DNA of 64,000 bases, taken from positions 28,852 through 92,851 of the forward strand of contig JBKUJR010000002.1 in assembly GCA_046952735.1 (NCBI GenBank), given 5' to 3'. The notes beneath the pieces are model-generated. The model ran no database searches, was not told the DNA's origin, and saw only the letters and a list, made by a program, of their open reading frames with translations. The DNA comes from Clostridia bacterium (lineage in GTDB: Bacteria; Bacillota; Clostridia; UBA1212; UBA1255). Both the position numbers and the translations under genes were made by a program. Below are positions 770-61,179 of this stretch, in pieces. Positions within the stretch are counted from its first letter, which is position 1. Each line of letters opens with the position of its first letter.

Positions 770-790
770 ATCTGTAAAACCTCCGTTCCT

Positions 791-2602: not shown

Positions 2603-2971
2603 TCAGTCTTCCACTGCGCCTATGGTATATTCGCTGACTACCTTACCATTCACAATATGATCCGTAACGACGCGCACAGCTTTCTCCGCCGTCATTTTTA
2701 CGTAAGTAACTTTTGTTCCGTCTTTGTCGATGACTTCCACGATAGGCTCTAAACGGCACATTCCGATACAGCCCGTCATTGCCACAGTGGCATTTGTGAT
2801 ATTTCTTTTGCGGATTTCGTCGACAAACGCGTTCATAACCGGTCTGGCGCCCGCTGCGATCCCGCAGGTAGCCATGCCCACGATGATCCGCATCCCCTCG
2901 GTCCCGTTTCTCATGGAAATTTCATTCTGCGTTTTTTCTTTAATTGCTTTTAATTCAGCTAACGATTTCAT
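2603..2971 (-). CDS. thioredoxin-like [2Fe-2S] ferredoxin (HndB-like small hydrogenase subunit), 122 aa
   Basis: Cys spacing in MATCGIAAGA...MTGCIGMC... is typical of NuoE/HndB-like 2Fe-2S proteins. It sits between the HATPase gene and nuoF-like, as in clostridial hnd/hyd operons. Confidence 0.7.
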   Translation of the reverse strand: MKSLAELKAIKEKTQNEISMRNGTEGMRIIVGMATCGIAAGARPVMNAFVDEIRKRNITNATVAMTGCIGMCRLEPIVEVIDKDGTKVTYVKMTAEKAVRVVTDHIVNGKVVSEYTIGAVED

Positions 2972-3518: not shown

Positions 3519-3524
3519 GGGAAA

Positions 3525-4004: not shown

Positions 4005-4061
4005 ATAATTTAACCTCCATTTTAGTAAATATTTGTTAAATACATACTTTTCAACCCTACG

Positions 4062-4090
4062 ATTATATCGCAGCTTCCAATAAATATCAA
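4062..4090 (-). promoter_or_regulatory. sigma-A-type promoter for the hydrogenase structural operon (TTGATA-17-TATAAT on the minus strand)
   Basis: The minus strand reads TTGATAtttattggaagctgcgaTATAAT, with the -10 element about 55 nt upstream of the nuoE-like ATG. It lies in the 106-nt gap after the PHP gene. Confidence 0.55.
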
Positions 4091-4110
4091 CAGCAAAATT
4101 CAGACGCTTT

Positions 4111-4851: not shown

Positions 4852-5191
4852 ATGCCGTAATAATCAGTTCGGCTGCCTGCAGCGGCGTGGAAAGCAGCGT
4901 TACTTCCCGTTCCCGCGCTTTTTCAGCCAACACGTCGGGAATTTCGATTCCTTCCGGAATGACGATGCAGGCTACCTCTACCAGAGAGGCGACGGCCAGG
5001 ATATTGATATTGTTCATTACCGTCACCCATAAATCGCCCTCTTTTGCATGCGAAATCGCCCAGCTCAGCAAGTCGCACGCATAAAATCCGGAGATTTCCC
5101 GATCCGGATCGCCCGTTACCAATTTTAATTTGCATGGCTCAAGAAGATCACTGATTTTCATCTTCCGCCTCCGTTCCGTCTGTAAAACCAT
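4826..5191 (-). CDS. DRTGG domain protein, about 110-121 aa
   Basis: Small CBS-associated DRTGG-type fold (…VMNNINILAVASLVEVACIVI…). The likely true start is the internal Met near 5161 (MKISDLL). It overlaps its neighbours on both sides. Confidence 0.6.
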   Translation of the reverse strand: MVLQTERRRKMKISDLLEPCKLKLVTGDPDREISGFYACDLLSWAISHAKEGDLWVTVMNNINILAVASLVEVACIVIPEGIEIPDVLAEKAREREVTLLSTPLQAAELIITAYELSKRIG

Positions 5192-7291: not shown

Positions 7292-9951
7292 CAGACATCA
7301 AACCTCTTTCTTAAATTCTCAAGTCGTTCGGCGACATTGTCATACATCTGTTTATATTTTACCAGCTTTGCTTTTTCTTCGTCAACCACTTTCTGAGGTG
7401 CTTTTGAGGTGAAATTTACATTTTCAAGCTTGGCGTTCACACGTCCCAGCTCTTTTTCGAGATTTTCTTTTTCTTTTGACAGGCGTTCCATTTCTTTTTC
7501 AAAATCGATCAGTTCATCCAAAGGTATATATATTTCCGCGCCGGCTACGACGGCTGCCGCGGCGTCTTCGGGAATGCCTGTTTTATTTTCCTGGAGCGAA
7601 ATACCGGAGGCGTATGCAAGGCGCTGGAAAAGCTGCTCCGCATTCCGGATCACGTCCGCTTCCCTGCCGCCTGCTACGAATATAATGCGGGCTTTGCGGG
7701 ACACCGGCACGTTCATCTCCTGACGGATATTCCGTATTGCGCGGATTGCGCTGATGACCAGAGCCATGTCTTTTTCCTCCGTCGGATATTCCTGCGCCGG
7801 ATCGTATTCCGGCCATTTAGAGATCATTATGCTTTGCGCGTCTTTATAAAGGCTCTGATACAGTTCTTCCGTAATAAACGGCATAAACGGGTGGAGGAGC
7901 TTCAGGCATTTTACGAGGACTTCATTGAGCACATACTGCGCTTCCAATCTGGAAGGCGCCGCGTCGTCGAACAAGCGCGGCTTTACGAATTCGATGTACC
8001 AGTCGCAAAAATAATCCCACATAAAATCATATACCTTGGCAAGGGCTACGCCAAGTTCAAATTTTTCCAGATTTTCCGTTACTTCTCTGACCAGCGTATT
8101 GCAGGCGGATAAAATCCACTTGTCCGCCGCAGTGAATTTTTCCGGATCGAGCTGCCTGAAATCCGGTTCATCGTCGAAATTCAGAAGTACGAAGCGCGTA
8201 GCGTTCCAGATCTTGTTGGCAAAATTCCGTGCGGCTTCCACTTTCTCCGGAAGATATCTTTGGTCGTTCCCCGGCGCATTCCCGGAGGTCAGCGCAAAGC
8301 GCAGCGCGTCCGTACCGTATTCGCTGATAACTTCCAGCGGATCGATTCCATTTCCAAGGGATTTCGACATTTTCCTCCCCTGTGAATCCCGTACGAGCCC
8401 ATGGATCAGGACATACTTGAAAGGCGGTTCCCCCATTTGTTCGCAGGCGGAGAAAATCATACGCGCGACCCAGAAAAAGATAATGTCATAGCCCGTAACC
8501 AACACGTCCGTTGGATAAAAATATTGCAAATCCTCCGTCTGCCGGGGCCAGCCTAATGTGGAGAAAGGCCATAATGCAGAGCTGAACCAGGTATCCAGCG
8601 TGTCGGGATCCTGCCGAAGCGCAGAGGCGCCGCAATGCGGGCAGCGCTCCGGTTTTGTTTTTGCAACGATCGTTTCGCCGCACGCATCGCAATAATAAGC
8701 GGGGATGCGATGCCCCCACCAGAGCTGGCGGGAAATGCACCAGTCCTGGATATTTTCCATCCAGTTATAATAAATTTTTGAAAAGCGATCCGGCACGAAT
8801 TTTACCTTGCCCGTTTTTACGGCATCAATGGCCGGTTCCGCCAGAGGCTTCATCTTTACATACCATTGCTTGGAGACCATCGGTTCTACGACCGTACCGC
8901 AGCGCTGGCACGTTCCGACGTTATGCTTATGCGGTTCTGTCTTTACCAGCAGCCCCAGCGCATCAAGATCCGCTATGATCTGTTTCCGCGCTGCGTATCG
9001 CTCCATTCCGCGGTATTTTCCACCGTTTTCATTGATAAAGCCGCGATCGTCCATGATTTTGATCACTTCGAGTTCATGGCGTTTTCCAACCTCAAAGTCG
9101 TTCGGATCGTGTGCCGGCGTAATTTTAACAGCGCCCGTACCGAAGCCGAGCTCGACGTATTCATCTGCAATAATCGGAATTTCTTTATCCATCAAGGGCA
9201 AAATCAACTTTTTCCCGATTAAATGGCGATATTTTTCGTCTTCCGGATTTACTGCGACTGCCGTGTCGCCAAGCATCGTTTCCGGACGCGTCGTTGCGAT
9301 CATCAGGGATCCGCTTCCATCCGCAAACGGATAATCGATGTACCAGAAGCTGCCGTCAAGCTCTTTATACTCCACCTCGATATCGGAAATAGAGGTATTA
9401 CAGTGCGGGCACCAATTCGTAATCCTTTCTCCGCGGTATATGAGCCCTTTTTCATAGAGCTTTATAAATACTGTAAGGACCGCTTCAGACAACCCCTCAT
9501 CCATCGTAAAACGCAGTCTGCTCCAATCGCAGGAGCTTCCCAGACATTTCAGCTGGTTTACGATCCGGTTGCCGTACAATTCTTTCCATTCCCAGGCTCT
9601 TTTCAGAAAGGCTTCTCTGCCGACGTCTTCTTTCGTCAGTCCCTCCTTTGCCATGGCGTCCACGATCTTTGCTTCTGTCGCAATACTTGCGTGGTCGGTG
9701 CCCGGCACCCAGAGCGCGGAAAAGCCCTGCATCCTTTTGAAGCGGATCAGGATATCCTGCAGCGTATTATCGAGCGCATGTCCCATATGCAGCTGTCCCG
9801 TGATATTCGGAGGCGGGATCACGATGGTAAAAGGTTTTTTATCAGGATCTGCTTTTCCCTTAAAATATCCTTTTTCTTCCCAATTCTGATAGATTCTTTG
9901 TTCAACGCAGGCAGGATCGTAAACCTTTGCCATGGTATCAGCCTTTTTCAT
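7291..9951 (-). CDS. valS: valine--tRNA ligase, 886 aa
   Basis: Class I aaRS HIGH motif ([15 protein letters not shown]) and KMSKS ([10 protein letters not shown]), editing domain, and C-terminal coiled coil. A GGGAGG RBS lies upstream. Confidence 0.97.
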
Positions 9952-46738: not shown

Positions 46739-48823
46739 TTATTGTATCATTTTCAGCTTTTTGATCGTATCCCGTATTTTAGCGGCATCCTCGTATCGAA
46801 GCTCTCCCGCCGCCTCCGCCATCCGGAGCGTCAATGTCTCGATCAGCGTATCGATCGGCATATTTTGTTCTTCCTCCGTCAGCTCCATGGTCATGTCGAG
46901 CTTCGTCTTCGGCGCTTTGGAAGCGATTCTGCCTCCGTCCTTCGTAATGCCTCCGCTTGCAATCTCGCCGATTATATCTGATGTTCCGGCCTCTTTAATG
47001 CGCGTAGAATCGATAACCTCGCGTACGCTCTTTACGATCGTTTTCGGAACAATATGATGCTGTTCGTTATACGCCCTTTGCAGTTCCCGCCTTCTGTTCG
47101 TTTCACGGATCGCATACTGCATGGACTCCGTAATTTCATCGGCATACATGATGACGCGGCCTTCCACATTTCTTGCGGCCCTTCCAATCGTCTGGATCAG
47201 AGACGTTTCGCTGCGCAGGAATCCGGCTTTGTCGGCATCCAATATTGCGACCAGGGACACCTCCGGAAGATCGAGCCCTTCCCGTAAAAGGTTGATTCCA
47301 ACCAGAACGTCGAATTCCCCTGTCCGCAGGTCCTTGATGATTTCCATCCTTTCGATGGATTTTATATCGGAATGCAGATATCGGACCCGAATTCCCACAT
47401 TCCCCAGATATTCCGTCAGGCTTTCCGCCATTTTCTTCGTTAATGTCGTTACCAGGATTCTTTGCCCTTTTGCCGTAATCTGTCGGATTTCCCCGATCAG
47501 ATCGTCGATCTGGCCTTCTACGGGGCGCACGACGATTTCCGGATCGATCAGGCCAGTAGGCCGTATGACCTGCTCCACGATTTCAGAGGCGCGTTCTCTT
47601 TCGTATTTGGCAGGCGTCGCGCTGACATAAATCACCTGGTGGATTCTGTCTTCAAATTCGTTGAATTTCAACGGACGGTTGTCCATTGCGGAGGGCAGGC
47701 GGAATCCGTATTCCACAAGCGATTCTTTCCGCGCCCGGTCGCCGTTGTACATCGCCCGCACCTGGGGAATCGTCGCATGGGATTCATCGATAAACATCAG
47801 GAAATCCTTTGGAAAATAATCCATCAGCGTATAAGGCGCGCTTCCTGCCGCGCGGCCGCTGATATGGCGGGAATAATTTTCGATCCCGCTGCAAAATTTC
47901 GTCTCCCGCAAAAGCTCCATGTCGTAACGCGTGCGCTGCTCCAGACGGTATGCCTCCAATATTTTCCCCTGCTCCTTAAAATATTGCACCTGCTCTTCCA
48001 TTTCTGCTAAAATGCCGTCGATGGCACGTTCCATTTTTTCATCCGTCGTTGCGTAATGGGAGGCCGGGAAAATGGCGGCGTGCGATAAAACAGCGCGTAT
48101 TTTATAATTGATCGCATCGCATTCCGTTATCCTGTCGATTTCATCGCCAAAAAATTCCACTTTGATGATCGTGTCATTCCGATCCGACGGACGGATACTG
48201 AGCGTGTCGCCGCTCACCCGGAACGCGCCTCTGGAGGAAAAATCACTGTTGTCATTCGAATAATTCATGGAAACGAGCTTCGCGGCCGCCTGGCGGATTT
48301 CCATGTGCATCCCCGGGCGAAGGGAAAGCATCAGATCCGTATAGTCTTCCGGATCTCCCAGGCCATAGATGCAGGATACGCTGGAAACGATGATGACATC
48401 GCGCCGTTCAAATAACGCCGCCGTTGCGGAATGGCGGAGACGGTCGATTTCATCGTTAATGCTGGAGTCTTTTTCGATATAAGTATCCGAAGCCGCAATA
48501 TACGCCTCCGGCTGATAATAATCATAATACGAGATAAAAAATTCCACCGCATTGTGCGGAAAAAATTCTTTGAATTCGCTGCAAAGCTGTGCGGCAAGCG
48601 TTTTGTTATGCGCTAAAACAAGCGCAGGCCGGTTCATTTGCGCAATGATGTTCGCCATCGTAAACGTTTTACCGGAACCCGTCACGCCGAGTAAAATCTG
48701 CTCCCGGAGCCCGCTTTCCAATCCATCGACCAGCTTTGCGATCGCTTCCGGCTGATCCCCTGTCGGGACATATGGCGCTTCCAGTTGAAAAATGCCTTTT
48801 TGATTCCGTATGTTTTCGATCAT
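46739..48823 (-). CDS. uvrB: excinuclease ABC subunit B
   Basis: SF2 helicase motifs (GVTGSGKT), a beta-hairpin, and a C-terminal UVR domain. The start is taken at MIENIRNQ. Confidence 0.97.
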
Positions 48824-48982
48824 ACCGCTCACCCCTTTTTGCAATAAAATAAGGATCCATGATAATACGTGACACAGGCTGCGCTCCTGCAAAACCTGAA
48901 AGTACAGTATACCATGGATCCAAAAAAAACGGAATAGCTGCGTACTGTTTCCAGCCGGAATTTGCCGCTGGAAAATGCTGTA

Positions 48983-50071
48983 TTAATTTTGTACGGTATG
49001 GCATTTGATATATTCCAGCCACTTCATGCAATATTCTTTTCCCATGTGGATTCCGTCGCTTGCCGCGCCGCCGGGCAGATATCCTTCGTCATCGGCCAGA
49101 GCCTCTTGTACGTTTAAGAAACAGACGTTCTCCTGCTCGCACATTTCGTAGATATAGCGATTGAATATTGCGATATTTTCATTGTTTTCATAGGCCGGGT
49201 CCACCCCGGAGCCGCTGATTTTGCGCGCCACAGGGATCACGCACTCCACATAAATCTGCACATCCGGTTGGATGCTTCGGATGAGATCCAGCACCGCCGT
49301 ATAATATTTTACAAACTCGGACGGGTACGGCCATCCTACCTCGTTATAGCCTAACATGATATAGACTTTGGAAAAATCGTCGTATTTCGTCAGCGCTTCT
49401 TCCAGCGTGAGTTTTTCCCCTTCGACGAGGAAACGCGTTCTGCGCTCGGGATCATTCGCAAGGATCTGATTGACGGAAACGCCGACATGCGTGTAAAACC
49501 GGGCGTATTTAGCCATTCCCGTGAAAAGCGCGAAATCCTCCATGCGGGAATCTCCGATAAAGACGGCATCTTCAAAATATTCCCATCCCACAGGCGCGCT
49601 TTCCGCGACCTGATTCGGATAATGATAACCCGTAAACGGCGTCGGACGCGGCGTGGGAGAAGCGGTAACGGGTTCGGCAGTCGCCGCAGACGTCGGCGTC
49701 GGCGCCGCCGTTTTAGGCGCAGTCACGGACGGCGCAGGGGAAACGGTCTCCGATACGACGGACGGCGTAGGATCCGGCGGGATAAATTCTGTTTTTGCCG
49801 GCAACGTCGTCTGCGGCGGCGTAACGATTATGGTTGCAGAGGGAGTATGTTCGATTTGCATCGTAGCTTCAGGCGTCTGTGCCGCAGACGCCGTTTCCGG
49901 GGCGGCTGCATGGACGCCGGCGGTATGATCCGGCCTTCTGTTTAAAAAAACAGCCAGCGAAATCGATAAAACTGCGAGCGCCAATATCAGAATAGAAAAT
50001 AAAATGATTTTTTTGCGTTTTTCATCTGGTGTCACATTGTTTGACGGGTGTTCCGTTTTGTCTTTTGTCAT
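48983..50071 (-). CDS. membrane-anchored SGNH/GDSL hydrolase with a Pro/Thr/Ala-rich linker
   Basis: N-terminal TM anchor, a roughly 110-aa PT-rich low-complexity linker, and an SGNH domain (FIGDSRM ... GYNEVGW). The start is taken at MTKDK. Confidence 0.7.
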   Translation of the reverse strand: MTKDKTEHPSNNVTPDEKRKKIILFSILILALAVLSISLAVFLNRRPDHTAGVHAAAPETASAAQTPEATMQIEHTPSATIIVTPPQTTLPAKTEFIPPDPTPSVVSETVSPAPSVTAPKTAAPTPTSAATAEPVTASPTPRPTPFTGYHYPNQVAESAPVGWEYFEDAVFIGDSRMEDFALFTGMAKYARFYTHVGVSVNQILANDPERRTRFLVEGEKLTLEEALTKYDDFSKVYIMLGYNEVGWPYPSEFVKYYTAVLDLIRSIQPDVQIYVECVIPVARKISGSGVDPAYENNENIAIFNRYIYEMCEQENVCFLNVQEALADDEGYLPGGAASDGIHMGKEYCMKWLEYIKCHTVQN

Positions 50072-50179
50072 ATGATTTCCTCCCATGCCAGAATTTTCTA
50101 ATAAAATTATAAAAGACTGCGGGGAGAAATGCACCACCCGAATTGACAGAAAAAAGGATATGTCCGCATAGCGCCGGGG

Positions 50180-51394
50180 TCATAGAAAATCCGCCAGATT
50201 TTTCCGTTTCCCGACGCCGACTTTCTCCATTGCGCTGCCCAAACGCTGTTTCACGGTATTGACGGAAAGATGCAGCCGGTCTGCGATCTCCTTGTTTGTC
50301 AAACCGTATACCGCCAGCTTCACGACCTCCCGCTCCCGGATCGTCCATACGTTTGTGACATTGCGATGCAGTACGGCATTATGTACGTTCGTCCATCCCT
50401 CGAGCAAACGTTTACTTAATGAAATAACGGCGTCGTACGCAGACCGGTCCGTCTTTCTCAGGCGCCGGAACAACAAAAAGTCCAGCTGCCGGCAATATTC
50501 CGCAAGCACCACATACAGCCGGTCCGGCAGCGTAATCTCAAGGACGCGGTCGATATGGAGCAGCGCCGTTTTATCATCCCCATTGTCGTGATATGCGATC
50601 GCAGCCAAAATCCGCTGATACGCTTCGGAAAGCAGTACGCCTTCCAGCTTTGTCTGAGAGATCAGCGGCTCTGCCGCCGCCGTAAAGTCCTGCCTTGCCC
50701 GCAGAGCATTCTTTTCGATCAGCAAATATTTTAAATAATAAAATCTTGCCAGAGGATACGTCTCACCCGGCAGATCTCCAAAGCTGCCGCGCCGGAACCA
50801 CGCGGGAAAATGCGCTCCGTCGTAAATTGCGCTCTGCATCCCGGCCCGGCACATTGCGAGATAATTTTGATCCGCCGTCGTACCGCATACCATGCGCCGC
50901 ATATTTTCTTCGGCGGCCTTCCACAGCGTTACGTCTCCCAGATACATCGCGCAGCTTGATAAAATTACGGACGTCCCGATTTTCGTGTCAAAGCACGATG
51001 CTGTTGCATATAATGTGCCGGCTTTCTGATAGGCTTTTTGAATTTCCCCGCGGAAATACGAAAGCTGGCAATCGCACAGCAGGGCAAGCTCCGGCTGATC
51101 TTTGAGTTTTCTGATGACCGCATCCGCGCTCCCGGGAACGACGTATAAGCCCGTCATCAGCGGGATCGGCGTCCTGTAAGGCAAGTAAGAAAAATGCTGC
51201 CGCACGTCGTCTTTTTTCACTTTCCGGAGATCCTCCGGTTTTTCCGCATCCACAGGAATCATCCAGGAGCGCTGGTATTTTTTTGCACCCGGTATTCTCC
51301 CTTCTGAAAGCAAACGCTGCGTATACCGAAGAGAAATTCCCCATCGTTCCGCCGCTTCCCTTGCGGACAAATACTGCATTGGCTCCACCCCCAA
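50180..51394 (-). CDS. two-HTH regulator: N-terminal excisionase/MerR-type HTH and a C-terminal LuxR-type HTH around a helical repeat core, 404 aa
   Basis: N-terminal YLSAREAAERWGISLRYTQRLLSEGRIP (HTH_17-like). The C-terminal LuxR HTH is LTIREREVVKLAVYGLTNKEIADRLHLSVNTVKQRL. Confidence 0.7.
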   Translation of the reverse strand: MGVEPMQYLSAREAAERWGISLRYTQRLLSEGRIPGAKKYQRSWMIPVDAEKPEDLRKVKKDDVRQHFSYLPYRTPIPLMTGLYVVPGSADAVIRKLKDQPELALLCDCQLSYFRGEIQKAYQKAGTLYATASCFDTKIGTSVILSSCAMYLGDVTLWKAAEENMRRMVCGTTADQNYLAMCRAGMQSAIYDGAHFPAWFRRGSFGDLPGETYPLARFYYLKYLLIEKNALRARQDFTAAAEPLISQTKLEGVLLSEAYQRILAAIAYHDNGDDKTALLHIDRVLEITLPDRLYVVLAEYCRQLDFLLFRRLRKTDRSAYDAVISLSKRLLEGWTNVHNAVLHRNVTNVWTIREREVVKLAVYGLTNKEIADRLHLSVNTVKQRLGSAMEKVGVGKRKNLADFL

Positions 51395-51551
51395 AAACAG
51401 AAATAGCTAAGAATAGTTTAGCCGTTATAACGTATCATTTCAATAGATTCCTTCAAAAAATTTTAAGGGAAATCAGAAACGGAAAAGCGTCTCCCCACCG
51501 CCTGAAAAGACGGAAGGAGACGCTCTGATCTTGTCTGTCCCGAGATCCCTA

Positions 51552-52031
51552 TTACAGCGTTACATTCCAGTTTTTGCAGACGTCGACCCATTTCCGGCAA
51601 CCGGAGAATTTTTCCAGTTCCGGGATCGTAAGCCTGACGGCGCTGTTTGCGCTTCCCGCAGCAGGATATACCGTTTCGAAACGTTTCAGGGAGATATCGA
51701 GATAAACCGCAACCGCTTCTCTGACTGCGAACGGGCACACGCCGCCGGGCGCATGGCCCACCAGTTCCTCCACACACTCTGCCGGGATCATTTTCGCTTT
51801 CGTCTGAAATTCGGCGCGGTATTTCTGATTATCGATCCGCGCATCGCCTGCGACGACGATCAGAACAGGCTGTTCCGATACAAGAAAAGACAGGGTTTTC
51901 GCGATATGCTCCGGCGGACAGCCAACCGCCTTTGCAGCAAGCTCCACCGTGGCGCTGGATTCCGTAAATTCCAAGATCCGGTCCCCGGCTCCTGCCGCAT
52001 GAAAATATGCTTTCACCTGTTCTATCGGCAT
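51552..52031 (-). CDS. YbaK/ProX-family aminoacyl-tRNA deacylase (Cys-tRNA(Pro) deacylase-like), 159 aa
   Basis: YbaK fold motifs (…KTLSFLV…, …GGVCPF…). A hairpin plus T-tract follows the gene at about 51497-51540. Confidence 0.75.
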   Translation of the reverse strand: MPIEQVKAYFHAAGAGDRILEFTESSATVELAAKAVGCPPEHIAKTLSFLVSEQPVLIVVAGDARIDNQKYRAEFQTKAKMIPAECVEELVGHAPGGVCPFAVREAVAVYLDISLKRFETVYPAAGSANSAVRLTIPELEKFSGCRKWVDVCKNWNVTL

Positions 52032-52053
52032 ATCTGATTTCTCCTTCCCCGTA

Positions 52054-53085
52054 TTACCGATCTTTCCGTCTCACGGAAGAAACGATTCCGCCCGCCGCAA
52101 AAATCAGCGCTGCAGCAATGCAGGCAAGCAGTACGATTACTATAACATTACCGTCAAGCAAATCCAAGTCCCAGTTTTTCAGATCGAAACGCGGTAAGGC
52201 AACCGCCTCTTTATTGATGAGAGCTTTGAGTACGCTGTTGCAGAAAAAGGTGTAAACGCCGGCAGCCGCAAGACAGATCGACGTTTTGAAAAAAACGCCG
52301 CATCGGATGTAACGCAGAACCGCCAGATAAACCCAGGGAAGGACGATGGCAAAGGCCGCGACAGGGAACGCCGTCTTTAAAATATAATCCATTGCGTACC
52401 CGGTATGCAGACAGCCGGCCAGAACGAGCGCAAATAAAAGGACCGTATCCAGCAAAAAGCATAGCAGAGATTTATGTCTGCCCAGAGCGCCCGGCAGACG
52501 GACCGCCCGCAGCGCAAACGGCAGAAAGACAACGGTAAAACCAAACAGCAGCGCGATAAACGTGATTCCGAACCACGCTCCCCCTGTATAGATATTACAC
52601 GTCAGCAAAAGCAGATTCAGAGAAACGTAAAAAGAAAGCAGGGTCGTCAGGCCTTTCTGTTTTTTAACAAGAACCGGCACGTTCGTCAGGGAAAAAGCCG
52701 CCATTTCCGCCGTCAAAACGATAAAAAACCACGATAGCGTATGGGATACGGCAAGATTGCAGATCAGGCACGTCAGCAGCGAAACGGCATAGAGCGCGTA
52801 AAACACCCAAGAATATCCTTTTACGAGACGGCGGAATCGTTCCGCCTGGCGTTCCGTTTCTTTTTGTCTGTGATCATCCGTTGCCGTAATCAGCTCGTGT
52901 TCGCTGATCTGCAGAATTTCGCAGAGCGAGGCGACAAGCGTAATATCCGGATAGGAAATGCCGCGCTCCCATTTACTCACTGCCGACTCCGTTACAAATA
53001 AGCGGTCGGCAAGCATCTTCTGTGACAGCCCCGCTTCCTTTCTCTTTTTCAGAATATATTTTCCAAACGATTCTTTTCCTTCCAT
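52054..53085 (-). CDS. XRE-family HTH fused to a roughly 8-TM membrane domain (membrane-tethered regulator), 343 aa
   Basis: N-terminal HTH_3 (ILKKRKEAGLSQKMLADRLFVTESAVSKWERG) followed by multiple hydrophobic helices. Confidence 0.7.
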   Translation of the reverse strand: MEGKESFGKYILKKRKEAGLSQKMLADRLFVTESAVSKWERGISYPDITLVASLCEILQISEHELITATDDHRQKETERQAERFRRLVKGYSWVFYALYAVSLLTCLICNLAVSHTLSWFFIVLTAEMAAFSLTNVPVLVKKQKGLTTLLSFYVSLNLLLLTCNIYTGGAWFGITFIALLFGFTVVFLPFALRAVRLPGALGRHKSLLCFLLDTVLLFALVLAGCLHTGYAMDYILKTAFPVAAFAIVLPWVYLAVLRYIRCGVFFKTSICLAAAGVYTFFCNSVLKALINKEAVALPRFDLKNWDLDLLDGNVIVIVLLACIAAALIFAAGGIVSSVRRKDR

Positions 53086-53280
53086 TCCGGACTCCTCCTA
53101 TATAAAAATTGTTTTGCCTCCGGATCCTGCCAAGGCGATCCCATCGTATCCGTGCCGGCCGGCAAAGTCAACAAAAGACGGGCCTTTTTTCCCTCGACCG
53201 GTAAGCCACCCCTGGAAACAAAGGAAATTTCACAGTTTTTGTGGCTTTGCATGAAGCGCATGCCGACATGGATAAAATTG

Positions 53281-53309
53281 TTGCAGTCTGTTAAAGATAC
53301 TGCTATAAT
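53281..53309 (+). promoter_or_regulatory. promoter TTGCAG-17-TATAAT for the large secreted protein gene
   Basis: TTGCAGtctgttaaagatactgcTATAAT, read directly. It lies 60 nt upstream of the MHLKK start, with a GGAGGG RBS. Confidence 0.5.
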
Positions 53310-53369
53310 ACAAAACATATTGCAGAATCATGTTAAAAAAATATATCATCTTTTATGGAGGGATGCCAT

Positions 53370-56003
53370 ATGCATCTGAAAAAATACATACGGTACGTTC
53401 TGTTCTGTTTGCTGACCTGTATCCTCGCCGCCGGCGCAGGAACGCCTGCCGTCAGAATGCAGGCGCAAAACGGGATCTATGACTGGCTCGGCGCTACGCC
53501 GTATTCTCCGGAATACGATTTTACGAACAGCGACCTTTCGGGTTATGCAAAAGATGATCTTTTATCTTTAAAAAATAAAGGTTTTTTCGTATTTGACGGA
53601 AATACGCTCTCCGTGCGGAAAAATGCTTCCGCCTCCATCGGCGGCGCGCATTATTTGGGAGATTATTACGGCCTTGCAGGCGGCGTCCTCTCCTTCGATG
53701 CGCTGACGGAGAAAGACGGCCGGATCGAGGCCGGCGTGCGCTGTATCAGCCCGAACGCAGATCCATATGAGAAAGGGATCTTTTTTATTCTGACGGACAA
53801 TAAAATTTCCGTCTCGATCCCGACGATCGATTTTACGAAGGAACTTTGCAGCGGCATCGACATGGCGGCAGACCAGAGAATCGAAATCAGGGATACAGTA
53901 GACGAAATTACGCTTTTCATAGAAGGCCGATGCCGCGCTTCGATACTTTACGGCGCAAACGGCGCGTTATCCATCAGAGACGGCGCAGGCAGCTTGTTGG
54001 CGGAGACGGAAGAAACTTTTCTCTATCCGGCCGGATACTGGAATATCAAACTGGAAAGAACGGAAAATGCCGTCTGGATCGACCATTTGAAATTTGATTT
54101 TACAGAAATCGATCAGACCCTGCCGGAGCGCGATCAGCGCCATGTCTCATATCAGAATTGGGTCGCTACGGATGATCTGGGCCGGACGACGAGTATGGGC
54201 AGCCAGACAGGCGGGCCGAAAGAAGATAAGTATGTCGGTATCTTTTATTTTCTGTGCGTCGTAGGCGCGGGGGTCCATGTCCAGGATAATACGAAAATTT
54301 ATTTAGAGAGCGGCGCAGACGGCCTGAAGCAGTATCTGCAGCAGAAAGGCGGAGAAGCGTATTGGTCGGAGCCGTATTTTGGCTATTATAGGAATACGGA
54401 TACCTGGGTTTACCGGAAGCACGCTTATATGCTGGAAGCCGCGGGCGTCGATTTCGTATTCTTGGATATTTCCAACGAGGAGACGTTCGATAAAGCGCAT
54501 CTGGCGCTGTTCGACACGTGGCTGCAAATCCGGAAAGAAGGCGGCCAGACGCCGCAGATCTGTTTCCTGACAGGCGATACCGAAGGCCGTCTCGAATCCC
54601 ATATGAAGCGTCTCTTAAAAACGGTTTATTCCGATAAAAATTATTCTAAATATGAAGAGTTGTTTTTCAAATGGGAAGGAAAGCCTCTCATTTTCGGAAA
54701 CAGCGCCAATTTATCGGATGAAATGAAAAATACGCTCAATAATTTTACCGTCAGGGGCTGCTGGGCCTGGGAGAACAGGGACGGATATTGGAACTGGCTC
54801 CAGGAAATACGCTACGATGAAAATAGCGGCGAATATTTTATGTATAAAGGCAGGGATCCGTTCGGGAATTTCGAACAGCTGGCCGTTGCAATGGGACATC
54901 ATCCCTCTACCAGTAAGGGCCGCAGCTATGTGAAGGGCGTGCAGCCCAATAACGGAAAGAACGATTTTGAATTTTCCTCCGAAACGTCCGGCCTGGGCCT
55001 CGGTTTTGCGTCGCAGTTTGAAATGGCGATCGAACTGGATCCCCAGGTGATTATGATTACCGGCTGGAACGAGTGGATCGCCGGCCTTCCGCGGGATTCC
55101 TCCTTCACCCATTTTGCGAATACGGACGTAAACGGATATATGTATATCGACCAGTTCAATCCGGAATTCAGCAGGGACGGCGAACCGATGAAGCTGCGTG
55201 ACGGCGTTGGATTCGGGGATAATTATTATTACCAAATGGTGGATTATATCCGAAAATTCAAAGGCATGGAGGCGGAGGCGCTTGCGGCGGGACAGGACAC
55301 CATCGATCTTTATGGCGACGTATCGCAATGGGAAAACGTATCGCCTGAATTCAGGGATACCATCGGCGACGTTGCTTTTCGAAACGAGCCGTCGTACGAC
55401 ATGGAGTTCCGATATATCAACAATACCGGCAGAAACGATTTTGAGTACGCAAAAATTTCCCAGGACGACGACGCGCTTTATTTCTTTGTCAAAACCGTCC
55501 ACGATATCGTTCGGGATGACGGCGCGGACTGGATGAACCTTTACATCGACCTCGATAAAAATCATGAAACCGGTTGGGAGGGCTACGATTACGTGATCAA
55601 CCGCAAGCGCGGCGAAACGCATATGTCCATAGAAAAATTCAACGGTAATACGTGGGAAGGGAGCGAAACCGGAGAGGCGGAATACACCCTCGGCACAGAT
55701 TATTTGATCCTGAAAGTGGAGAAAAAGCTTTTGGGCGTCGAATCCGGCGGAAGGATCAACTTTGATTTTAAATGGAGCGACCATTCCGCCGCCGGCGGCA
55801 ATATTATGGAATTCATGGATCTTGGGGATACGGCTCCGAACGACAGATTCAATTTCAGATATCTCGTTGAAGGAGGCAAAGACCTTGGAAGCGGAGGCGG
55901 CCTCTCCACTGCCGCAATCATCGGCCTGATCGCAGGCGGCGCGGCAATCGTGCTTGCCGCAGCGGTCGTACTTATATTTAAAATCGTAGGGAAAAAGGGT
56001 TAA
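53370..56003 (+). CDS. large secreted glycoside-hydrolase-like protein with a C-terminal Gly-rich linker and TM anchor, about 877 aa
   Basis: Signal peptide (MHLKKYIRYVLFCLLTCILAAGAG). A central TIM-barrel-like region (…VDFVFLDISNE…, …ITGWNEWIAG…). A C-terminal GSGGGLS linker plus the TM IIGLIAGGAAIVLAAAVVLIF and KIVGKKG. The family assignment is uncertain. Confidence 0.55.
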   Translation: MHLKKYIRYVLFCLLTCILAAGAGTPAVRMQAQNGIYDWLGATPYSPEYDFTNSDLSGYAKDDLLSLKNKGFFVFDGNTLSVRKNASASIGGAHYLGDYYGLAGGVLSFDALTEKDGRIEAGVRCISPNADPYEKGIFFILTDNKISVSIPTIDFTKELCSGIDMAADQRIEIRDTVDEITLFIEGRCRASILYGANGALSIRDGAGSLLAETEETFLYPAGYWNIKLERTENAVWIDHLKFDFTEIDQTLPERDQRHVSYQNWVATDDLGRTTSMGSQTGGPKEDKYVGIFYFLCVVGAGVHVQDNTKIYLESGADGLKQYLQQKGGEAYWSEPYFGYYRNTDTWVYRKHAYMLEAAGVDFVFLDISNEETFDKAHLALFDTWLQIRKEGGQTPQICFLTGDTEGRLESHMKRLLKTVYSDKNYSKYEELFFKWEGKPLIFGNSANLSDEMKNTLNNFTVRGCWAWENRDGYWNWLQEIRYDENSGEYFMYKGRDPFGNFEQLAVAMGHHPSTSKGRSYVKGVQPNNGKNDFEFSSETSGLGLGFASQFEMAIELDPQVIMITGWNEWIAGLPRDSSFTHFANTDVNGYMYIDQFNPEFSRDGEPMKLRDGVGFGDNYYYQMVDYIRKFKGMEAEALAAGQDTIDLYGDVSQWENVSPEFRDTIGDVAFRNEPSYDMEFRYINNTGRNDFEYAKISQDDDALYFFVKTVHDIVRDDGADWMNLYIDLDKNHETGWEGYDYVINRKRGETHMSIEKFNGNTWEGSETGEAEYTLGTDYLILKVEKKLLGVESGGRINFDFKWSDHSAAGGNIMEFMDLGDTAPNDRFNFRYLVEGGKDLGSGGGLSTAAIIGLIAGGAAIVLAAAVVLIFKIVGKKG

Positions 56004-56059
56004 TCATCGTGCCGCACGCAGGCATGATTTTTAATAAATCTTTTTAGGAAGGTGTTTGT

Positions 56060-57187
56060 ATGAAAAAATTTGTCAGTATCTTTACAATCGTATGCCTCCT
56101 GTTCTGTATGAACTGCTTCTCCCCTCTGTTCGCGTCAGCAGTTGATTATACGATCAACTTCGACGAAGAGGTAGAAGGAGACAGCTTTGAGAACACGGCG
56201 CTCAGCGAGGAGTTTCTGCTGGAAGCCGGTACGCCGGACAGCGGCGCGACCATTGAAGAAGATGAGGCCGGCGGCAATTTGATGACGCTCAAAGGCTATA
56301 CGGATATCAAATCCATCACTTATTTTGAGAAGGCTTATACGTTTTCCGTCGATTTTATTTCCAATGCGGATAATACGGCTGTTTTTGTGCGCGGCGTCGA
56401 GCCGTCGGAATATATCCAGGTGGAGAATCCCAAAAACCAGAACGTGCTTCAGGCCTTCAATTATTACGAATGGGACTGGTATCAAGAAAACGGCGGCAGC
56501 ACGGGCTCCAGCATAGGCGGCAGCGGAATCTACATCATGCCAGCCGCCAATATCATTAAAATCGGACTGAAGCTGTATCAGGAAGACGGGCTCGGCGTTT
56601 CTACGAAAGTATTCGACCTGCCTGCGCCGGAGGGATATCAGCGAGGGGAAAAATGTACCATCAAAGTAGAAGATACCACCTCCTCCGTGACGGTATCTGT
56701 AAACGGTACAAAGCTGGCCGTAGTAGAACTCAGCGAGCCCGATACGAAATATAGTACGGACGACCCGAGCTACGGCTTTTATAAAAAAGCTGCCGTTAAA
56801 AATGCCGCAGGCGAAGAGCTCGGCGCCGTAGAAAACACCCGGATCTGTTCCGAGTATTCCCAGATTGCGATCACGACGCGAAATGCGACATTCAGCATAG
56901 ATAATCTCTCCCTGCAATACGAAGGCTCCGCTTCGGAACCGACGCCGTCCGACCCTTCCGCAACACCGGAAGATGATGCTACGGGATCGCCGGCAACTGC
57001 AAGCCCGAAGGCTACTGCAACGGCAACTGCGAAAGCGACAAAAACGCCTGTAAAAGCGACGAACGCGCCTTCCTCTCAGGATAGCGGCAATACGCCGATC
57101 ATCATTGCGGTCGTTTCCGCCTGCGTCGTAGTCGCCGCCGGCATTATCATCGCAATCATTGTTGCAAAGAAGAAGAAAAAATCATAA
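56060..57187 (+). CDS. secreted cell-surface protein with a C-terminal PT/A-rich linker and TM anchor, 375 aa
   Basis: Signal peptide, a beta-rich lectin/LamG-like body, a linker (PTPSDPSATPEDDATGSPATASPKATATATAKATKTPVKATNAPSS), and a TM plus a KKKKKS stop-transfer tail. Confidence 0.55.
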   Translation: MKKFVSIFTIVCLLFCMNCFSPLFASAVDYTINFDEEVEGDSFENTALSEEFLLEAGTPDSGATIEEDEAGGNLMTLKGYTDIKSITYFEKAYTFSVDFISNADNTAVFVRGVEPSEYIQVENPKNQNVLQAFNYYEWDWYQENGGSTGSSIGGSGIYIMPAANIIKIGLKLYQEDGLGVSTKVFDLPAPEGYQRGEKCTIKVEDTTSSVTVSVNGTKLAVVELSEPDTKYSTDDPSYGFYKKAAVKNAAGEELGAVENTRICSEYSQIAITTRNATFSIDNLSLQYEGSASEPTPSDPSATPEDDATGSPATASPKATATATAKATKTPVKATNAPSSQDSGNTPIIIAVVSACVVVAAGIIIAIIVAKKKKKS

Positions 57188-57276
57188 TGCGTACAAAGTA
57201 CGCAAAAGAAATCCACCGTCTCATGTGAACGGTGGATTTTTTGCCGCTTTCCTGCAAGCGCAGGCTACATCCCGCG

Positions 57277-57960
57277 TCAGATCATTTGACATGATTCCTT
57301 AACAATACATCCATCCTTAATTTCAATATGTTTTGAACAATAATCGGATACGGCTTTATCATGTGTGACGATAATCATCGTAGTCCCTTCCCCGTTAAGC
57401 TCCGCAAGCAGCTCCATGATCTGTTTCGATGTGGCGCTGTCGAGCGCGCCCGTAGGCTCATCCGCCAAAATTACAGAAGGATGGTTGATGATGGCTCTTG
57501 CAATCGCCACGCGCTGGCGCTGTCCGCCTGACAGCTGATTTGCCTTCTTATGGGCCTGATCGACGATGCCGACTTTCTCGAGCGCCTGCATGCCAAGCTT
57601 CTTCATCGCCGCGTAGGACGTCTTGTTAAAAAACAACGGAAGCATCGTATTAAACAGTACGGATTGATGATTTACAAGGCAAAAATCCTGAAACACATAG
57701 CCGATCTTCGAATTTCGCACCGAGGCAAGCTTTGCCTCGGATAGACGGCCTATCTTTTCTCCTTCAAGCAGATACTCGCCTGAATCGAAGCTGTCTATGC
57801 AGCCGATAATATTCAGCAGCGTAGACTTTCCGGCGCCTGATTTTCCCTCGACAGAAAGAAAGTCGCCCTTCTCTATCTGCAAATCGATATCCTTTAACGC
57901 CTGAAAGGAACTCTTCCCTACGGAATAATATTTGTTCAGATTTTTTATCTCTATGAAACT
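57277..57960 (-). CDS. ABC transporter ATP-binding protein (MacB/LolD-type)
   Basis: Walker A GKSGAGKST, the LSGGQRQRVAIARA signature, and Walker B ILADEPTGALD. The start is taken at MSFIEIKNL. Confidence 0.9.
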   Translation of the reverse strand, partial: SFIEIKNLNKYYSVGKSSFQALKDIDLQIEKGDFLSVEGKSGAGKSTLLNIIGCIDSFDSGEYLLEGEKIGRLSEAKLASVRNSKIGYVFQDFCLVNHQSVLFNTMLPLFFNKTSYAAMKKLGMQALEKVGIVDQAHKKANQLSGGQRQRVAIARAIINHPSVILADEPTGALDSATSKQIMELLAELNGEGTTMIIVTHDKAVSDYCSKHIEIKDGCIVKESCQMI

Positions 57961-59156
57961 CATAATTCTACCTTCCTCCTGATCAATGCGCAAGATTTCC
58001 GCCTGTAAATAAGAAATGACGCGAATACAGATAAAAACAGCAACAGCAGCCAATAGCAAATCAAAAATACATATACCGTATAATCCAATAAGAACTGATC
58101 CGTATTTACGATACTCATCAGTACGCTTCCTTTGCGTACTGTCAGGATTATGATGCTTACAAGCGACGCAAGCGCCCCGATGATTCCCAGGGACAAAGCC
58201 ATAATCCCGTAACCGCGCTTTTTAGTGCAGCCGCATAAGTAGAACGTGAGCATCAGATCCATTTTCCCGTGTAAAAACAATATGGAAAAGCACAATGTCA
58301 GGATCGCAGACAGCAATGCCAAATAGATCGGCAGCGGCATCATCTGTTCCAGTGTATCCGCGGTAATTTTATGAGAATTATCCAGAATCGTATCCGCGTC
58401 TGTGCAATGTAAATTGTGTTCCTCAAGGAAATCGTAGACCGCCTGTTTTTCATGTTCCGTACAGTCGTTAAATAGAAGAATAAAGCTTATCCCATAGCGC
58501 GTCATCCGAAATCCTTTATTGCTTAAAAACTCGCGTATTTCCGGAGAATCCTTCAGAATGATGGTATTGCTGCATGGTGCCATTATCTTATATGAAGTCA
58601 TCGCTGTCGACGCTTCCTTAAAAGTTGGAATATAATACGGGCTTACGATATTGCCAAGCAGACGGATCGGAAACGTGCCCTCGCTGCAATCAAACTGTAC
58701 ATTCTGCGCCTCGCCCTTTGTATCTATAAAATCCCCCACGGCGATCCCCTGCGGCATACCGTTCTCAATGCCTGTTTCCGCGTAATACGACTTGCTGTCC
58801 AATAGCTCATAGTCCCGCAGCATCTCCGTATCCGCAAGCAATATTAGGATTGTCCGGCCATGATAGGTTACGCTTCCGCCTGCTTTATACGCGTAAATTT
58901 CTTTCACGGCGCTCATGCCGCCAAGCTTGCTGTAAAATGTCTCATCGGGTCCCTCGATCGTAAAACGGGAAACATATACCGCGTCGTTTCCCTGCACCAG
59001 GCTTTCAAACAATCTGTCCGTTCGCGTATAATAGCGGTACGTGCCAAGCAAGTTCACGAGCAGCAGCTCGGCTATTATCGTGATGATCATAAGAAACGCC
59101 GCCGGGATCAGAATATTTTTGTAAAATGATTTCAGGATTAAAAATTTTTTTCTCAT
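57960..59156 (-). CDS. ABC transporter permease, FtsX-like (4 TM plus a large extracytoplasmic domain), copy 1
   Basis: N-terminal TM, a large periplasmic-type domain, and three C-terminal TMs, typical of the MacB/FtsX family. Confidence 0.75.
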   Translation of the reverse strand: MRKKFLILKSFYKNILIPAAFLMIITIIAELLLVNLLGTYRYYTRTDRLFESLVQGNDAVYVSRFTIEGPDETFYSKLGGMSAVKEIYAYKAGGSVTYHGRTILILLADTEMLRDYELLDSKSYYAETGIENGMPQGIAVGDFIDTKGEAQNVQFDCSEGTFPIRLLGNIVSPYYIPTFKEASTAMTSYKIMAPCSNTIILKDSPEIREFLSNKGFRMTRYGISFILLFNDCTEHEKQAVYDFLEEHNLHCTDADTILDNSHKITADTLEQMMPLPIYLALLSAILTLCFSILFLHGKMDLMLTFYLCGCTKKRGYGIMALSLGIIGALASLVSIIILTVRKGSVLMSIVNTDQFLLDYTVYVFLICYWLLLLFLSVFASFLIYRRKSCALIRRKVEL

Positions 59157-59176
59157 AGGCTCCGCCTCCCTCCGTT

Positions 59177-60256
59177 TTATTTTCTGAGCACTTTCAGCGC
59201 AGACCTGCGCGCGTAGGATATTACAAAAGGAACAGACGCAAGAACAGACGAAAGGATGACGATCGCCGTAATAATGGAGTAATCCCGCCACGCGTAATCG
59301 GTAGACGTCAAATTGAACCTTTCAAAAATACTATTATAAAAGATTTTATGTATCGCTATCGCAAGCACGCTTGCAGCAAGAGCGATAACGAATCGTTCTA
59401 AAAGCAAGAAAAAAGCGATCGTTCCTCTGCGGGCGCCTACAAGCTCCGAAATCGCATCCATTTTCCGGTTTATGGAGGTAATATACTGGATCAAAAACAG
59501 CAAGGCCGTAATGGAAAAAATATATAATATGAAAATCTCCAGTAAGTTGGTTGAAAAATACCGTATGTCATTGGCTACGCCGTATGCCGGTATGACCTGC
59601 TCCGCTCCAGGGATCGCGGATAATTTATTCATAAACGGCTGATGCTCCTCCATCGGCAGCCGTTCCGCCAGTATGATATCGATGTATTGAACAGGCAAAC
59701 GCAACGCTTCAAAAAGAGTGGATGGAATATAATAATCGGAATTGAAGGTCCCCACGCCGACAACATGGAATTCCCCCAGACCTCCGCATGAAATCTCATC
59801 GCCCGGATTTAGGGCGGAAGAACCGCCGCCCTGAGAATACGCAGCGATTACGCAATTTTCCCTGTTCTGAATTTCCGATTCCGTAAAATGGATTCTTCCC
59901 TTTAATTTCTGCCAGGCTAAGCCGGCGTCGTTGTTTTTCGAGGCAGAAATAATCTTGTTGATTTTTTCCTCTTTCCAACGGGAAGAAAAAACGATGTCCT
60001 TTATATCAGTATCCCGCAAAATTTCATCGAGCTCACCGGAAAGCGCGCTGTAATCGCTGTCCTTCAGACTGACTTGATACGTACAGTAGTAGGGGGTATT
60101 TACATGCTTCGTTCTCATATATCTAACCGTATTTCCATATATATATATAATAAGCAAATTCAGCAGAAGACTGCCCATTACGAATATACAGAAAATCGCC
60201 TTGCTCGACTGATAATACTGTTTTATTCTAGAGATCAGAAAAACCGAATACTTCAA
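59177..60256 (-). CDS. ABC transporter permease, FtsX-like, copy 2
   Basis: Same architecture as copy 1. Together they form a split permease. Confidence 0.75.
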   Translation of the reverse strand: MKYSVFLISRIKQYYQSSKAIFCIFVMGSLLLNLLIIYIYGNTVRYMRTKHVNTPYYCTYQVSLKDSDYSALSGELDEILRDTDIKDIVFSSRWKEEKINKIISASKNNDAGLAWQKLKGRIHFTESEIQNRENCVIAAYSQGGGSSALNPGDEISCGGLGEFHVVGVGTFNSDYYIPSTLFEALRLPVQYIDIILAERLPMEEHQPFMNKLSAIPGAEQVIPAYGVANDIRYFSTNLLEIFILYIFSITALLFLIQYITSINRKMDAISELVGARRGTIAFFLLLERFVIALAASVLAIAIHKIFYNSIFERFNLTSTDYAWRDYSIITAIVILSSVLASVPFVISYARRSALKVLRK

Positions 60257-60293
60257 AAGGACATCCTCCCTTTTACGCTATAATAGGACGATT

Positions 60294-60767
60294 TCACGAA
60301 AAGCCGCGAATCGAATCATAAAAATAGTGTCTTGTGTTAATGGCAGTATCATAACTTACTTGAAAGAAGGAGTATTCATACTGAACCATTTGTGGTGCAT
60401 CAATATTGCCCGCATCCGCCCAGCCGGAGTGTCTTTCTATATTTGATGTGTCAGGCGCACCAGAATAACTTGCTTCAAACTTTCCTGATGAAGATTTTAC
60501 GGCTGCAATACAACTGCCATACCAATAAGGGATTGCTTTCGTAGACGATCTGACTTTCGTAGTTTCTCTACCAATTCCAAGGAAACCATTCGAACCTTTG
60601 TAATAATAAATATCACATTCCCCATTAATCGTATAACTTCTATTAGAAGCGAAATTCCAGGCACCACCTTGGGGCGGAGAGGCATATGAATATGCCGCAA
60701 AGCAAGTGAATAATGATCCGACACATAGTAAAACAACTACGATTATAAATAAAAACGATTTTTTCAT
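60294..60767 (-). CDS. small secreted Gly/Tyr/Ser/Trp-rich protein, possible bacteriocin-like (lactococcin-972-like context), 157 aa
   Basis: Sec signal peptide (MKKSFLFIIVVVLLCVGSLFTCFAAYSYA). The mature region is about 128 aa, beta-rich, with 2-3 Cys. It sits immediately upstream of the split-permease ABC transporter. Confidence 0.4.
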   Translation of the reverse strand: MKKSFLFIIVVVLLCVGSLFTCFAAYSYASPPQGGAWNFASNRSYTINGECDIYYYKGSNGFLGIGRETTKVRSSTKAIPYWYGSCIAAVKSSSGKFEASYSGAPDTSNIERHSGWADAGNIDAPQMVQYEYSFFQVSYDTAINTRHYFYDSIRGFS

Positions 60768-61103
60768 AATACGATCCTCCTCTTACAATTTTGAATTTTT
60801 TTGTTTCAATCGGATTTCATAAGAATACCTTAGCCCAATAAAATTGGGCTAATAGTAAGCGCACGCAAATAACGCATCGCTATGAACCTTTACTCGTAAA
60901 TGTCCGGCAAATAACAATTGCATTGGAATTACCTCCTTTCATTTTTATAGTATTAAAATTTTATATTTTTTAATATATTTATATATATCATAAAAATTTA
61001 TATATGTCAATAATGAAATTGAAATTAAATTCAAAATTTATTTTAGTGTATTTATCGTTACAAACGGAATCCTTCAGCGTCAAAGTCTAAGGAAAACGTG
61101 ACG

Positions 61104-61140
61104 CAAAAAAAACCGCGGCACAGCAAAGGTGCGCCGCGGA
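61104..61140 (-). terminator. strong intrinsic terminator after the SGNH hydrolase gene (GC-rich stem plus a T9 run)
   Basis: The minus strand reads CCGCGGCGCACCtttgctGTGCCGCGG followed by TTTTTTTTT. Confidence 0.7.
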
Positions 61141-61179
61141 TTCGTTTGGTTGGGATACTTCTTTTTCAGCAGGAAAGGC

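Follow-up and report, generated by a model that had tools for sequence, protein, structure and literature searches.

We analysed a 64,000-nucleotide stretch of DNA from a gut Clostridia bacterium (assembly GCA_046952735.1, contig JBKUJR010000002.1, positions 28,852 to 92,851; hereafter the window), in which the gene of a small secreted protein is followed by the genes of a two-permease ATP-binding cassette (ABC) transporter. The cassette was predicted to be a single transcription unit on the minus strand (61010-57209). From 5' to 3' it consists of a promoter, a leader open reading frame (ORF) with a hairpin, the small secreted protein, permease A, permease B, the ATPase and a terminator. All four protein-coding ORFs that the original prediction had listed were present on the minus strand where it had placed them. 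The small gene (60294-60767) encodes a precursor of 157 amino acids (aa), which we treat as a candidate toxin or bacteriocin. Permease A (59177-60256, 359 aa) is of the FtsX/MacB type and begins at a TTG start behind GGGAGGA; permease B (57960-59156, 398 aa from its ATG) is its divergent paralogue. The ABC ATPase (57277-57963) belongs to the MacB/LolD/FtsE subfamily. Its start had been placed at the first TTG (58059), which we corrected to the ATG at 57963, giving a protein of 228 aa and not the 260 aa of the maximal ORF. This start overlaps the permease B stop codon (ATGA), an arrangement that suggests translational coupling. No modification genes were found in the operon.

The small protein was expected to be secreted through the Sec pathway, and the features of such a signal were present. 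Sequence features predict a signal peptide of ~24 aa, with an MKK n-region, a hydrophobic core (residues 5-23) and cleavage at ...CFA/AY, which leaves a mature domain of 133 aa. The FA/AY cleavage motif was conserved across the small-protein family. Family members are 150-172 aa long, and the full-length ones share the ~24-aa signal peptide and a conserved mature N-terminus, AYNYxxPP...W.F. A lipoprotein reading was rejected, as the Cys in the signal-peptide core was not conserved, the lipobox was poor and the conserved FA/AY site was found instead. The description of the protein as rich in Gly, Tyr and Trp held for Tyr (10.5%) and Gly (9.8%) but not for Trp (just three residues, 2.3%); Ser and Thr together made up 19.5% of the mature protein. 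Across the family, mature proteins contained 7-14% Tyr and had neutral to acidic isoelectric points (pI 4.4-8.3).

We found no match for the small protein in Pfam, NCBIfam, PHROG or PADLOC, and no sequence match in the PDB. AlphaFold2, run on the mature domain with a 15-sequence alignment, returned an eight-strand, helix-free, all-beta model (predicted local distance difference test score (pLDDT) 83, predicted template-modelling score (pTM) 0.77). A run on a 6-sequence alignment was discarded (pLDDT 43). The all-beta model and the lack of a Pfam domain agree with the earlier description of a beta-rich protein with no enzyme motif. Foldseek searches of the model against the PDB and BFVD returned nothing at E ≤ 1e-3, with a best TM-score of 0.42.

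The small-protein family was rare. A single-sequence search recovered six clusters, an exhaustive HMMER search found 8 true family representatives among 1.84 billion proteins, and a profile search found 16 family clusters among 5.8 billion proteins. The named sources were metagenome-assembled genomes (MAGs) of uncultured Clostridia, one of them a RUG (rumen) genome; most other contigs were unlabelled metagenome assemblies. The GTDB species representatives yielded one MAG with a cassette for the A5 subfamily profile and none for that of the window's A2 subfamily. This very rare and patchy distribution, together with the lack of any database family match, bears out the original suggestion of a distinct, undescribed family. 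Neither the small protein nor permease A had a match in a plasmid collection, and the small-protein profiles had none among viral contigs; carriage by a phage or plasmid was rejected on these empty searches. Defence-system and phage families were also rejected as an assignment, as they gave generic ATPase matches only.

We next describe the transporter. A hydropathy scan gave both permeases the same topology, with one transmembrane (TM) segment, an extracytoplasmic domain of ~200-240 aa (~200 aa in permease A) and then three TM segments. Matches to the Pfam FtsX domain (PF02687) lay below the cut-off of 25.5 bits for both permease A (22.7 bits, E = 1e-4) and permease B (14.4 bits, E = 0.04). 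The permease A orthologue in the related locus L019 passed this cut-off (36.5 bits), several cluster representatives carry a precomputed PF02687 assignment, and the L007 orthologue matched MacB_PCD at 25.9 bits, near the cut-off of 27. Profiles of permeases A and B aligned with each other over 340 columns (hhalign, 95%, E = 3e-8), making them full-length paralogues. The transporter is thus a LolC/LolE-style pair of type VII half-permeases, and we infer from the sequences that PermA and PermB form a physical heterodimer. The ATPase matched ABC_tran (E = 1.6e-30). Its best NCBIfam matches were TIGR03608 (an ABC family of the lactococcin 972 (Lcn972) type), DarD, LolD, MacB and FtsE (E = 1e-61 to 1e-67). 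TIGR03608 ranked top at 223.9 bits, below its cut-off of 254.85 and in a near tie with DarD and LolD. Topology, paralogy and ATPase matches agree on two FtsX-like permeases and a MacB-type ATPase downstream of the small gene, as first proposed. Transporter homologues were under purifying selection (ratio of nonsynonymous to synonymous substitution rates (dN/dS) 0.03-0.4). The small gene was also under purifying selection (dN/dS 0.15, window vs locus L002), and is therefore functional.

The neighbourhoods of the small gene bore out its association with the transporter, as each intact small gene with readable flanks adjoined split-FtsX/ABC genes. In the window and in L001-6, L007-9, L010, L018, L020 and L031, the gene order is small gene, permease A, permease B, ATPase. 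It is permuted in L019 (permease, permease, ATPase, small gene), with the association kept. Contig L012 ends inside permease A, so only the start of that gene is visible there. The co-occurrence of small gene and transporter spans ~70% sequence divergence. A possible second cassette downstream in L020 was rejected; its genes are GcvH and 2-hydroxyacyl-CoA dehydratase. For the P0005-type loci (L001-L006), contig ends fall inside the cassette or shortly behind it in several independent assemblies, at distances of 0.4-3.3 kb downstream of the small gene; this hints at strain-level variability or an adjacent repeat.

The sole small gene without a transporter was found in L016. Here the loss of 1 nt from an A-run shifts the frame at codon 4 and costs the gene the start of its signal peptide, and the gene lies beside a remnant that fuses the permease A N-terminus to the ATPase C-terminus (signature/Walker B region). 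Both the small gene and the transporter are decayed, and L016 was rejected as a counter-example to the linkage. Directly after this cassette (L016, 1-6635) lies the gene of a protein of >1800 aa with RHS repeats and a CBM96 domain, which suggests a competition-gene neighbourhood.

Transporters were also found as orphans. Four locus types (L021/22/25/26, L023, L024 and L032/33) hold all three transporter genes, and tblastn at E ≤ 1 found no small gene in these loci. The orphan genes of L023 had dN/dS values of 0.03-0.15 relative to the window, which shows that they are maintained. The L021-type genomes share synteny with the window, with uvrBA beside the cassette, and retain the promoter, leader ORF, hairpin and spacer at ~83% identity. 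A 511-bp segment, which in the window (60263-60780) lies between GGAGGAT direct repeats (60780-60774 and 60269-60263), is precisely absent from L021, L022, L025 and L026, where the transporter begins at the place of the small-gene ribosome-binding site (RBS). The indel junction is this 7-nt repeat, which is common to both RBSs. Because more distant cassettes (L002) have the leader, the hairpin and the small gene, the orphan state is most simply a deletion. In these four loci (1-5184), a module resembling BceAB-BceRS, in which an ABC ATPase and an FtsX permease of 886 aa stand with a response regulator and a histidine kinase, is directly followed downstream by the orphan transporter. Permease A is split in L021 (260 + 94 aa) and permease B is shortened in L026 (332 aa); these defects could be real decay or assembly errors.

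To place the cassette against its surroundings, we compared the window with L025. Synonymous divergence (dS) was 0.15-0.24 for the transporter genes (57277-60256) and 1.70 for uvrB (46739-48892), so that within the same two genomes the transporter value was about 7-10 times lower. This difference points to recent lateral exchange or recombination at the syntenic site. The GC content was 0.43 in the cassette compared to 0.49 in the rest of the window. At third codon positions (GC3) it was 0.30 in the small gene, 0.50-0.55 in the transporter genes and ~0.60 in the flanks; a separate origin, expression-linked codon use and mutational bias are possible reasons for the low value in the small gene. 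Relative to L021 and L025, the window holds ~7.5 kb of extra DNA between uvrB and the cassette (49483-57036). This DNA encodes a GDSL-type hydrolase, LuxR/HTH and HTH_3 regulators and a tRNA-editing-domain protein. It also encodes proteins of 882 aa (53355-56003) and 375 aa (56060-57187), each of which has an N-terminal signal and a C-terminal TM anchor and lacks a Pfam match.

The region upstream of the small gene was AT-rich, as had been noted before, with a GC content of 0.27-0.31 over 60700-61150 compared to 0.49 for the window. Within it lies a predicted sigma-A-type promoter (60982-61010, minus strand; TTGACA-17 nt-TATATA, with TG upstream of the -10 element), which alignments showed to be conserved in the related loci L021 and L002. 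We read this promoter from the sequence; a -10 hexamer ending in A kept it off the list of a consensus scanner. The leader ORF (60849-60923, minus strand) has 24 codons (MQLLFAGHLRVKVHSDALFACAYY) and a strong RBS (GAAAGGAGG). An ORF at the equal position in L021 shares 20 of its 24 residues, and the one in L002 has 25 codons with a peptide sequence that is not conserved. A conserved hairpin with a 10-bp stem (TTAGCCCAAT-TTT-ATTGGGCTAA; 60830-60852, minus strand) overlaps the stop codon of the leader ORF. The leader position and the hairpin (TAGCCCAAT...ATTGGGC) are kept across cassettes that are ~70% divergent and in the orphan locus (window, 60830-60923; L021, 5844-5940; L002, ~7850-7945). 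Leader and hairpin had no match in Rfam, and the one Rfam match of the operon was a chance-level Thr_leader over the terminator region. The hairpin may be a (translation-coupled) attenuator or an mRNA-stability element, and a leader-peptide attenuator might control the locus. The GDSL-hydrolase gene upstream of the cassette ends in an intrinsic terminator (61113-61139, minus strand; 10-bp GC-rich stem, then T8), and a terminator-like hairpin with a 12-bp stem (57209-57239, minus strand) lies downstream of the ATPase gene, at the operon end. With this upstream terminator, its own promoter and the downstream hairpin, the cassette is therefore an autonomous transcription unit.

The original prediction had likened the cassette to the loci of Lcn972. 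We confirmed the Lcn972 sequence by comparison with 2LGN and used it as the positive control on PF09683 (55.5 bits); Lcn972-family loci were taken for comparison from plasmids of Lactococcus, Streptococcus, Bacillus, Enterococcus, Macrococcus and Streptomyces. PF09683 matched none of 13 members of the small-protein family, even at E ≤ 10, and TIGR01653 gave no match. The hhalign probability for the small protein was 0.1% against Lcn972 and 6.7% (E = 0.005) against a 6-member Lcn972-family alignment. The latter match was short, covering the end of the signal peptide and a GxW motif (...PP..GxW.F vs GGxW.YG). The proposed likeness to the Lcn972 beta-sandwich found no backing, as Foldseek gave no significant match in the PDB, which includes 2LGN and 9HKJ. 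A fused Lcn972 dimer (133 aa being close to 2 x 66) was rejected on the lack of an internal repeat and on hhalign probabilities of 0.1-0.5% for the halves against Lcn972. The permeases had hhalign probabilities of 15% and 0.7% against DUF1430 with no match by hidden Markov model (HMM), and TIGR01654 was likewise unmatched. The ATPase was 38% identical to the pBL1 ATPase, a value ordinary for the subfamily. Since the HMM, profile-profile and DUF1430 tests failed, membership of the Lcn972 family is not supported.

Genuine Lcn972 loci consist of a bacteriocin gene, then a gene for a DUF1430 protein of 648-739 aa, then an ATPase gene. DUF1430 or 'bacteriocin-associated integral membrane' proteins are usually quoted with seven TM segments. 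Four of them (L014, 3571-5517; L027, 3960-6179; L028, 3877-6006; L030, 1300-3258) showed eight hydrophobic segments in a (1 + long loop + 3) x 2 pattern on a simple hydropathy scan, and the C-terminal module gave a weak FtsX match. DUF1430 proteins thus look like a fusion of the modules that are here encoded by separate genes, and the earlier term 'split FtsX' was well chosen. The claim that the cassette has the same organisation as Lcn972 loci stood as far as gene order and topology are analogous, but no relationship to Lcn972 could be demonstrated. In architecture the analogy is strong and the organisation is Lcn972-like, with the cassette an analogue rather than a member. Among the genuine Lcn972 loci, that of S. 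salivarius pSsal-YU10 (L015, 4460-6431) has its membrane protein annotated as overlapping ORFs of 253 aa and a 416-aa DUF1430 protein, which points to a frameshift or else to a natural split like the two-gene arrangement of the window. The locus on a Macrococcus plasmid (L030) has a gene for a small YxeA-family protein (3260-3574) between the DUF1430 and ATPase genes, a further case of a small protein set within an FtsX-type ABC cassette.

We favour the view, which we hold at even odds, that the cassette is a self-contained operon that combines a Sec-secreted protein bacteriocin with a PermA/PermB machine for ATP-driven immunity. No intact small gene occurs without the transporter, orphan transporters are under selection, the small gene is lost cleanly, and the distribution is patchy with lateral exchange; a toxin-immunity model is favoured by these observations together. 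This four-part genomic pattern is what toxin-immunity cassettes show, and the scb loci of pneumococcus, which are Lcn972-like, do likewise. The scbABC operon is incomplete in 27.5% of pneumococcal genomes, and D39-like pneumococci retain the immunity/transport genes in the absence of a functional bacteriocin (PMC11796350). The Sec-type signal, the lack of an enzyme or known domain, the extremely patchy, rare distribution, and the gene order and membrane topology shared with verified Lcn972-family loci are in support as well.

Under this bacteriocin model, the 157-aa precursor would be exported by Sec and its signal peptide cut after ...CFA. The released 133-aa, all-beta, Tyr-rich protein would act at the outer face of competing Gram-positive cells, by analogy on a target at the cell envelope. 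The downstream genes would form a heterodimeric type VII ABC machine, PermA-PermB-(ATPase)2, similar to MacB, LolCDE and FtsEX. As the small protein has its own Sec signal, this machine would not be needed for export. Type VII ABC systems perform mechanotransmission at the outer face of the membrane, probably without passage of a substrate across it, and YknXYZ (against SDP), BceAB and AS-48EFGH are members that protect against endogenous or exogenous peptide toxins (PMC5985334). In the cassette, the ATPase would most likely drive movement of the two large extracytoplasmic domains in this manner. These movements could dislodge the protein from the membrane or target of the producer, or prevent its access, and so confer self-immunity. 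Expression would come from the dedicated AT-rich promoter, possibly tuned by the leader ORF and hairpin. We regard it as somewhat less probable, falling just short of an even chance, that the small protein founds a bacteriocin family of gut and rumen Clostridia with a beta fold lacking a detectable relative and with LolCDE-like mechanotransmission immunity, and that deletion of the toxin between the RBS repeats produces immune 'cheater' strains.

Several points weigh against a bacteriocin. The small protein had no sequence or fold similarity to a known bacteriocin or toxin in sequence, profile or Foldseek searches. Its family has mature pI values of 4.4-8.3, whereas Lcn972 is cationic (pI 9.7). 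The Lcn972-family protein mediterrocin was recovered in the active fraction after a strong-anion-exchange step (PMC12345188), and a cationic charge may therefore not be required. The genes beside the window cassette include none for a dedicated regulator or for quorum sensing. Even in Lcn972 loci, an immunity role of permease and ATPase still awaits experimental verification (PMC11796350). The linkage evidence equally fits any obligate functional partnership of this small protein with the transporter.

Such a partnership is the main rival. In this case the small protein would lack toxicity and serve the type VII ABC machine as an extracellular partner or cargo, either as a soluble, LolA-like carrier for something taken out of the membrane or as an effector that the FtsX-like complex activates, as with FtsEX and PcsB, CwlO or EnvC. 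A secreted beta protein with two FtsX paralogues and an ATPase mirrors LolA with LolC/LolE/LolD (PMC5985334). The strict linkage, which survives a permuted gene order, and the neutral to acidic mature proteins also suit this explanation. However, the pLDDT-83 model found no significant match in the PDB, LolA-type folds and their open beta-barrel included. Neither the all-beta model nor the Pfam search revealed a coiled coil or a hydrolase domain, as would suit the FtsEX effectors. As the transporter is intact and under selection in four locus types that lack the small gene, the machine does not depend on the small protein. The codon composition of the small gene is distinct from that of the transporter, and the Clostridia hosts are presumably monoderm. 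On balance we consider a non-toxic partner unlikely.

Orphan transporters that are common and under selection could also be expected of a resistance pump for antimicrobial peptides in general, akin to BceAB or YknXYZ and directed against exogenous compounds, with the small protein as a sensor, decoy or unrelated passenger. The L021-type orphan is consistent with such a pump, as it adjoins the module of ABC ATPase, 886-aa FtsX permease, response regulator and histidine kinase described above, and the leader ORF and hairpin are reminiscent of inducible resistance genes. What makes this explanation quite improbable is that an intact small gene never occurs apart from this transporter family, across ~70% divergence and a permutation of gene order. 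The small gene also has a dN/dS of 0.15, and it comes first behind one predicted promoter that it shares with the transporter. A closer tie to Lcn972 was judged to be very improbable. Here the small protein would be a true, extremely diverged and enlarged Lcn972 member that binds lipid II, and the permeases a split DUF1430. The operon order and overall membrane topology are identical, TIGR03608 is the top match of the ATPase with 38% identity to its pBL1 counterpart, and there is the faint N-terminal resemblance (E = 0.005, probability 6.7%). Long family precursors exist, such as a 164-aa Streptomyces member, and mediterrocin has a predicted fold similar to that of Lcn972 at an identity of only 18% (PMC12345188). 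Against these stand PF09683 with 0 of 13 members, the unmatched TIGR01653, profile-profile probabilities of 0.1-6.7%, no significant Foldseek match to 2LGN or 9HKJ and no internal duplication. The permeases also compare poorly with DUF1430 (15% and 0.7%), and the ATPase remains below the TIGR03608 cut-off and ties with DarD and LolD.

Loci that pair an unmodified bacteriocin secreted by Sec with an ABC system of the FtsX type are already known. New elements here are a toxin-candidate family with no detectable relatives in sequence or structure, a heterodimeric permease family that is split and unmatched by DUF1430, and a leader ORF and hairpin that are conserved. Mediterrocin is one of the few protein antimicrobials known from gut and rumen Clostridia. 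If the small protein is toxic, it would represent a new bacteriocin family from uncultured members of this group, unrelated in fold and probably new in its target or binding mode, and the locus would drive producer, immune and sensitive dynamics in the gut. The presence of toxin-plus-immunity and immunity-only loci at a syntenic site in related species would then be a natural experiment on type VII ABC immunity. Standard genome-mining HMMs would miss the small-protein family; mining for the architecture (secreted protein, two FtsX permeases, MacB-type ATPase) could reveal further such families. For the discovery of bacteriocins in gut Clostridia and for the understanding of type VII ABC immunity, the cassette is a good lead that can be put to the test, and not a conceptual surprise.

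Compared to known systems, the cassette comes close to the Lcn972 operon (lcn972-orf2-orf3, pBL1), scbABC and the mediterrocin mdc locus. All begin with a Sec-secreted, unmodified, beta-structured protein, continue with (1 TM + ectodomain + 3 TM) x 2 permease module(s) and end with a MacB-type ATPase. Natural variants without the bacteriocin gene that keep the downstream genes, and occurrence in gut Clostridia, are further points of likeness. The cassette differs in that the mature small protein has 133 aa, compared to 66-89 aa in the Lcn972 family, and is not cationic, that the permease is encoded by two separate genes without a DUF1430 match, and that the ATPase lies under the TIGR03608 cut-off. 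With LolCDE and other heterodimeric type VII ABC systems it shares two paralogous 4-TM permeases of the FtsX/MacB type and a separate LolD-like ATPase. Unlike LolCDE with LolA, the small protein has no LolA-type fold match, the host is presumably monoderm, and the cassette is rare, laterally exchanged and dispensable. YknXYZ, BceAB and AS-48EFGH likewise combine an FtsX-type permease with an ATPase, and protect a producer or bystander from an extracellular peptide toxin. These systems use a single permease type, with YknX as an adaptor in one and a 10-TM fusion, BceB, in another, and none is paired with a homologue of the window's small protein.

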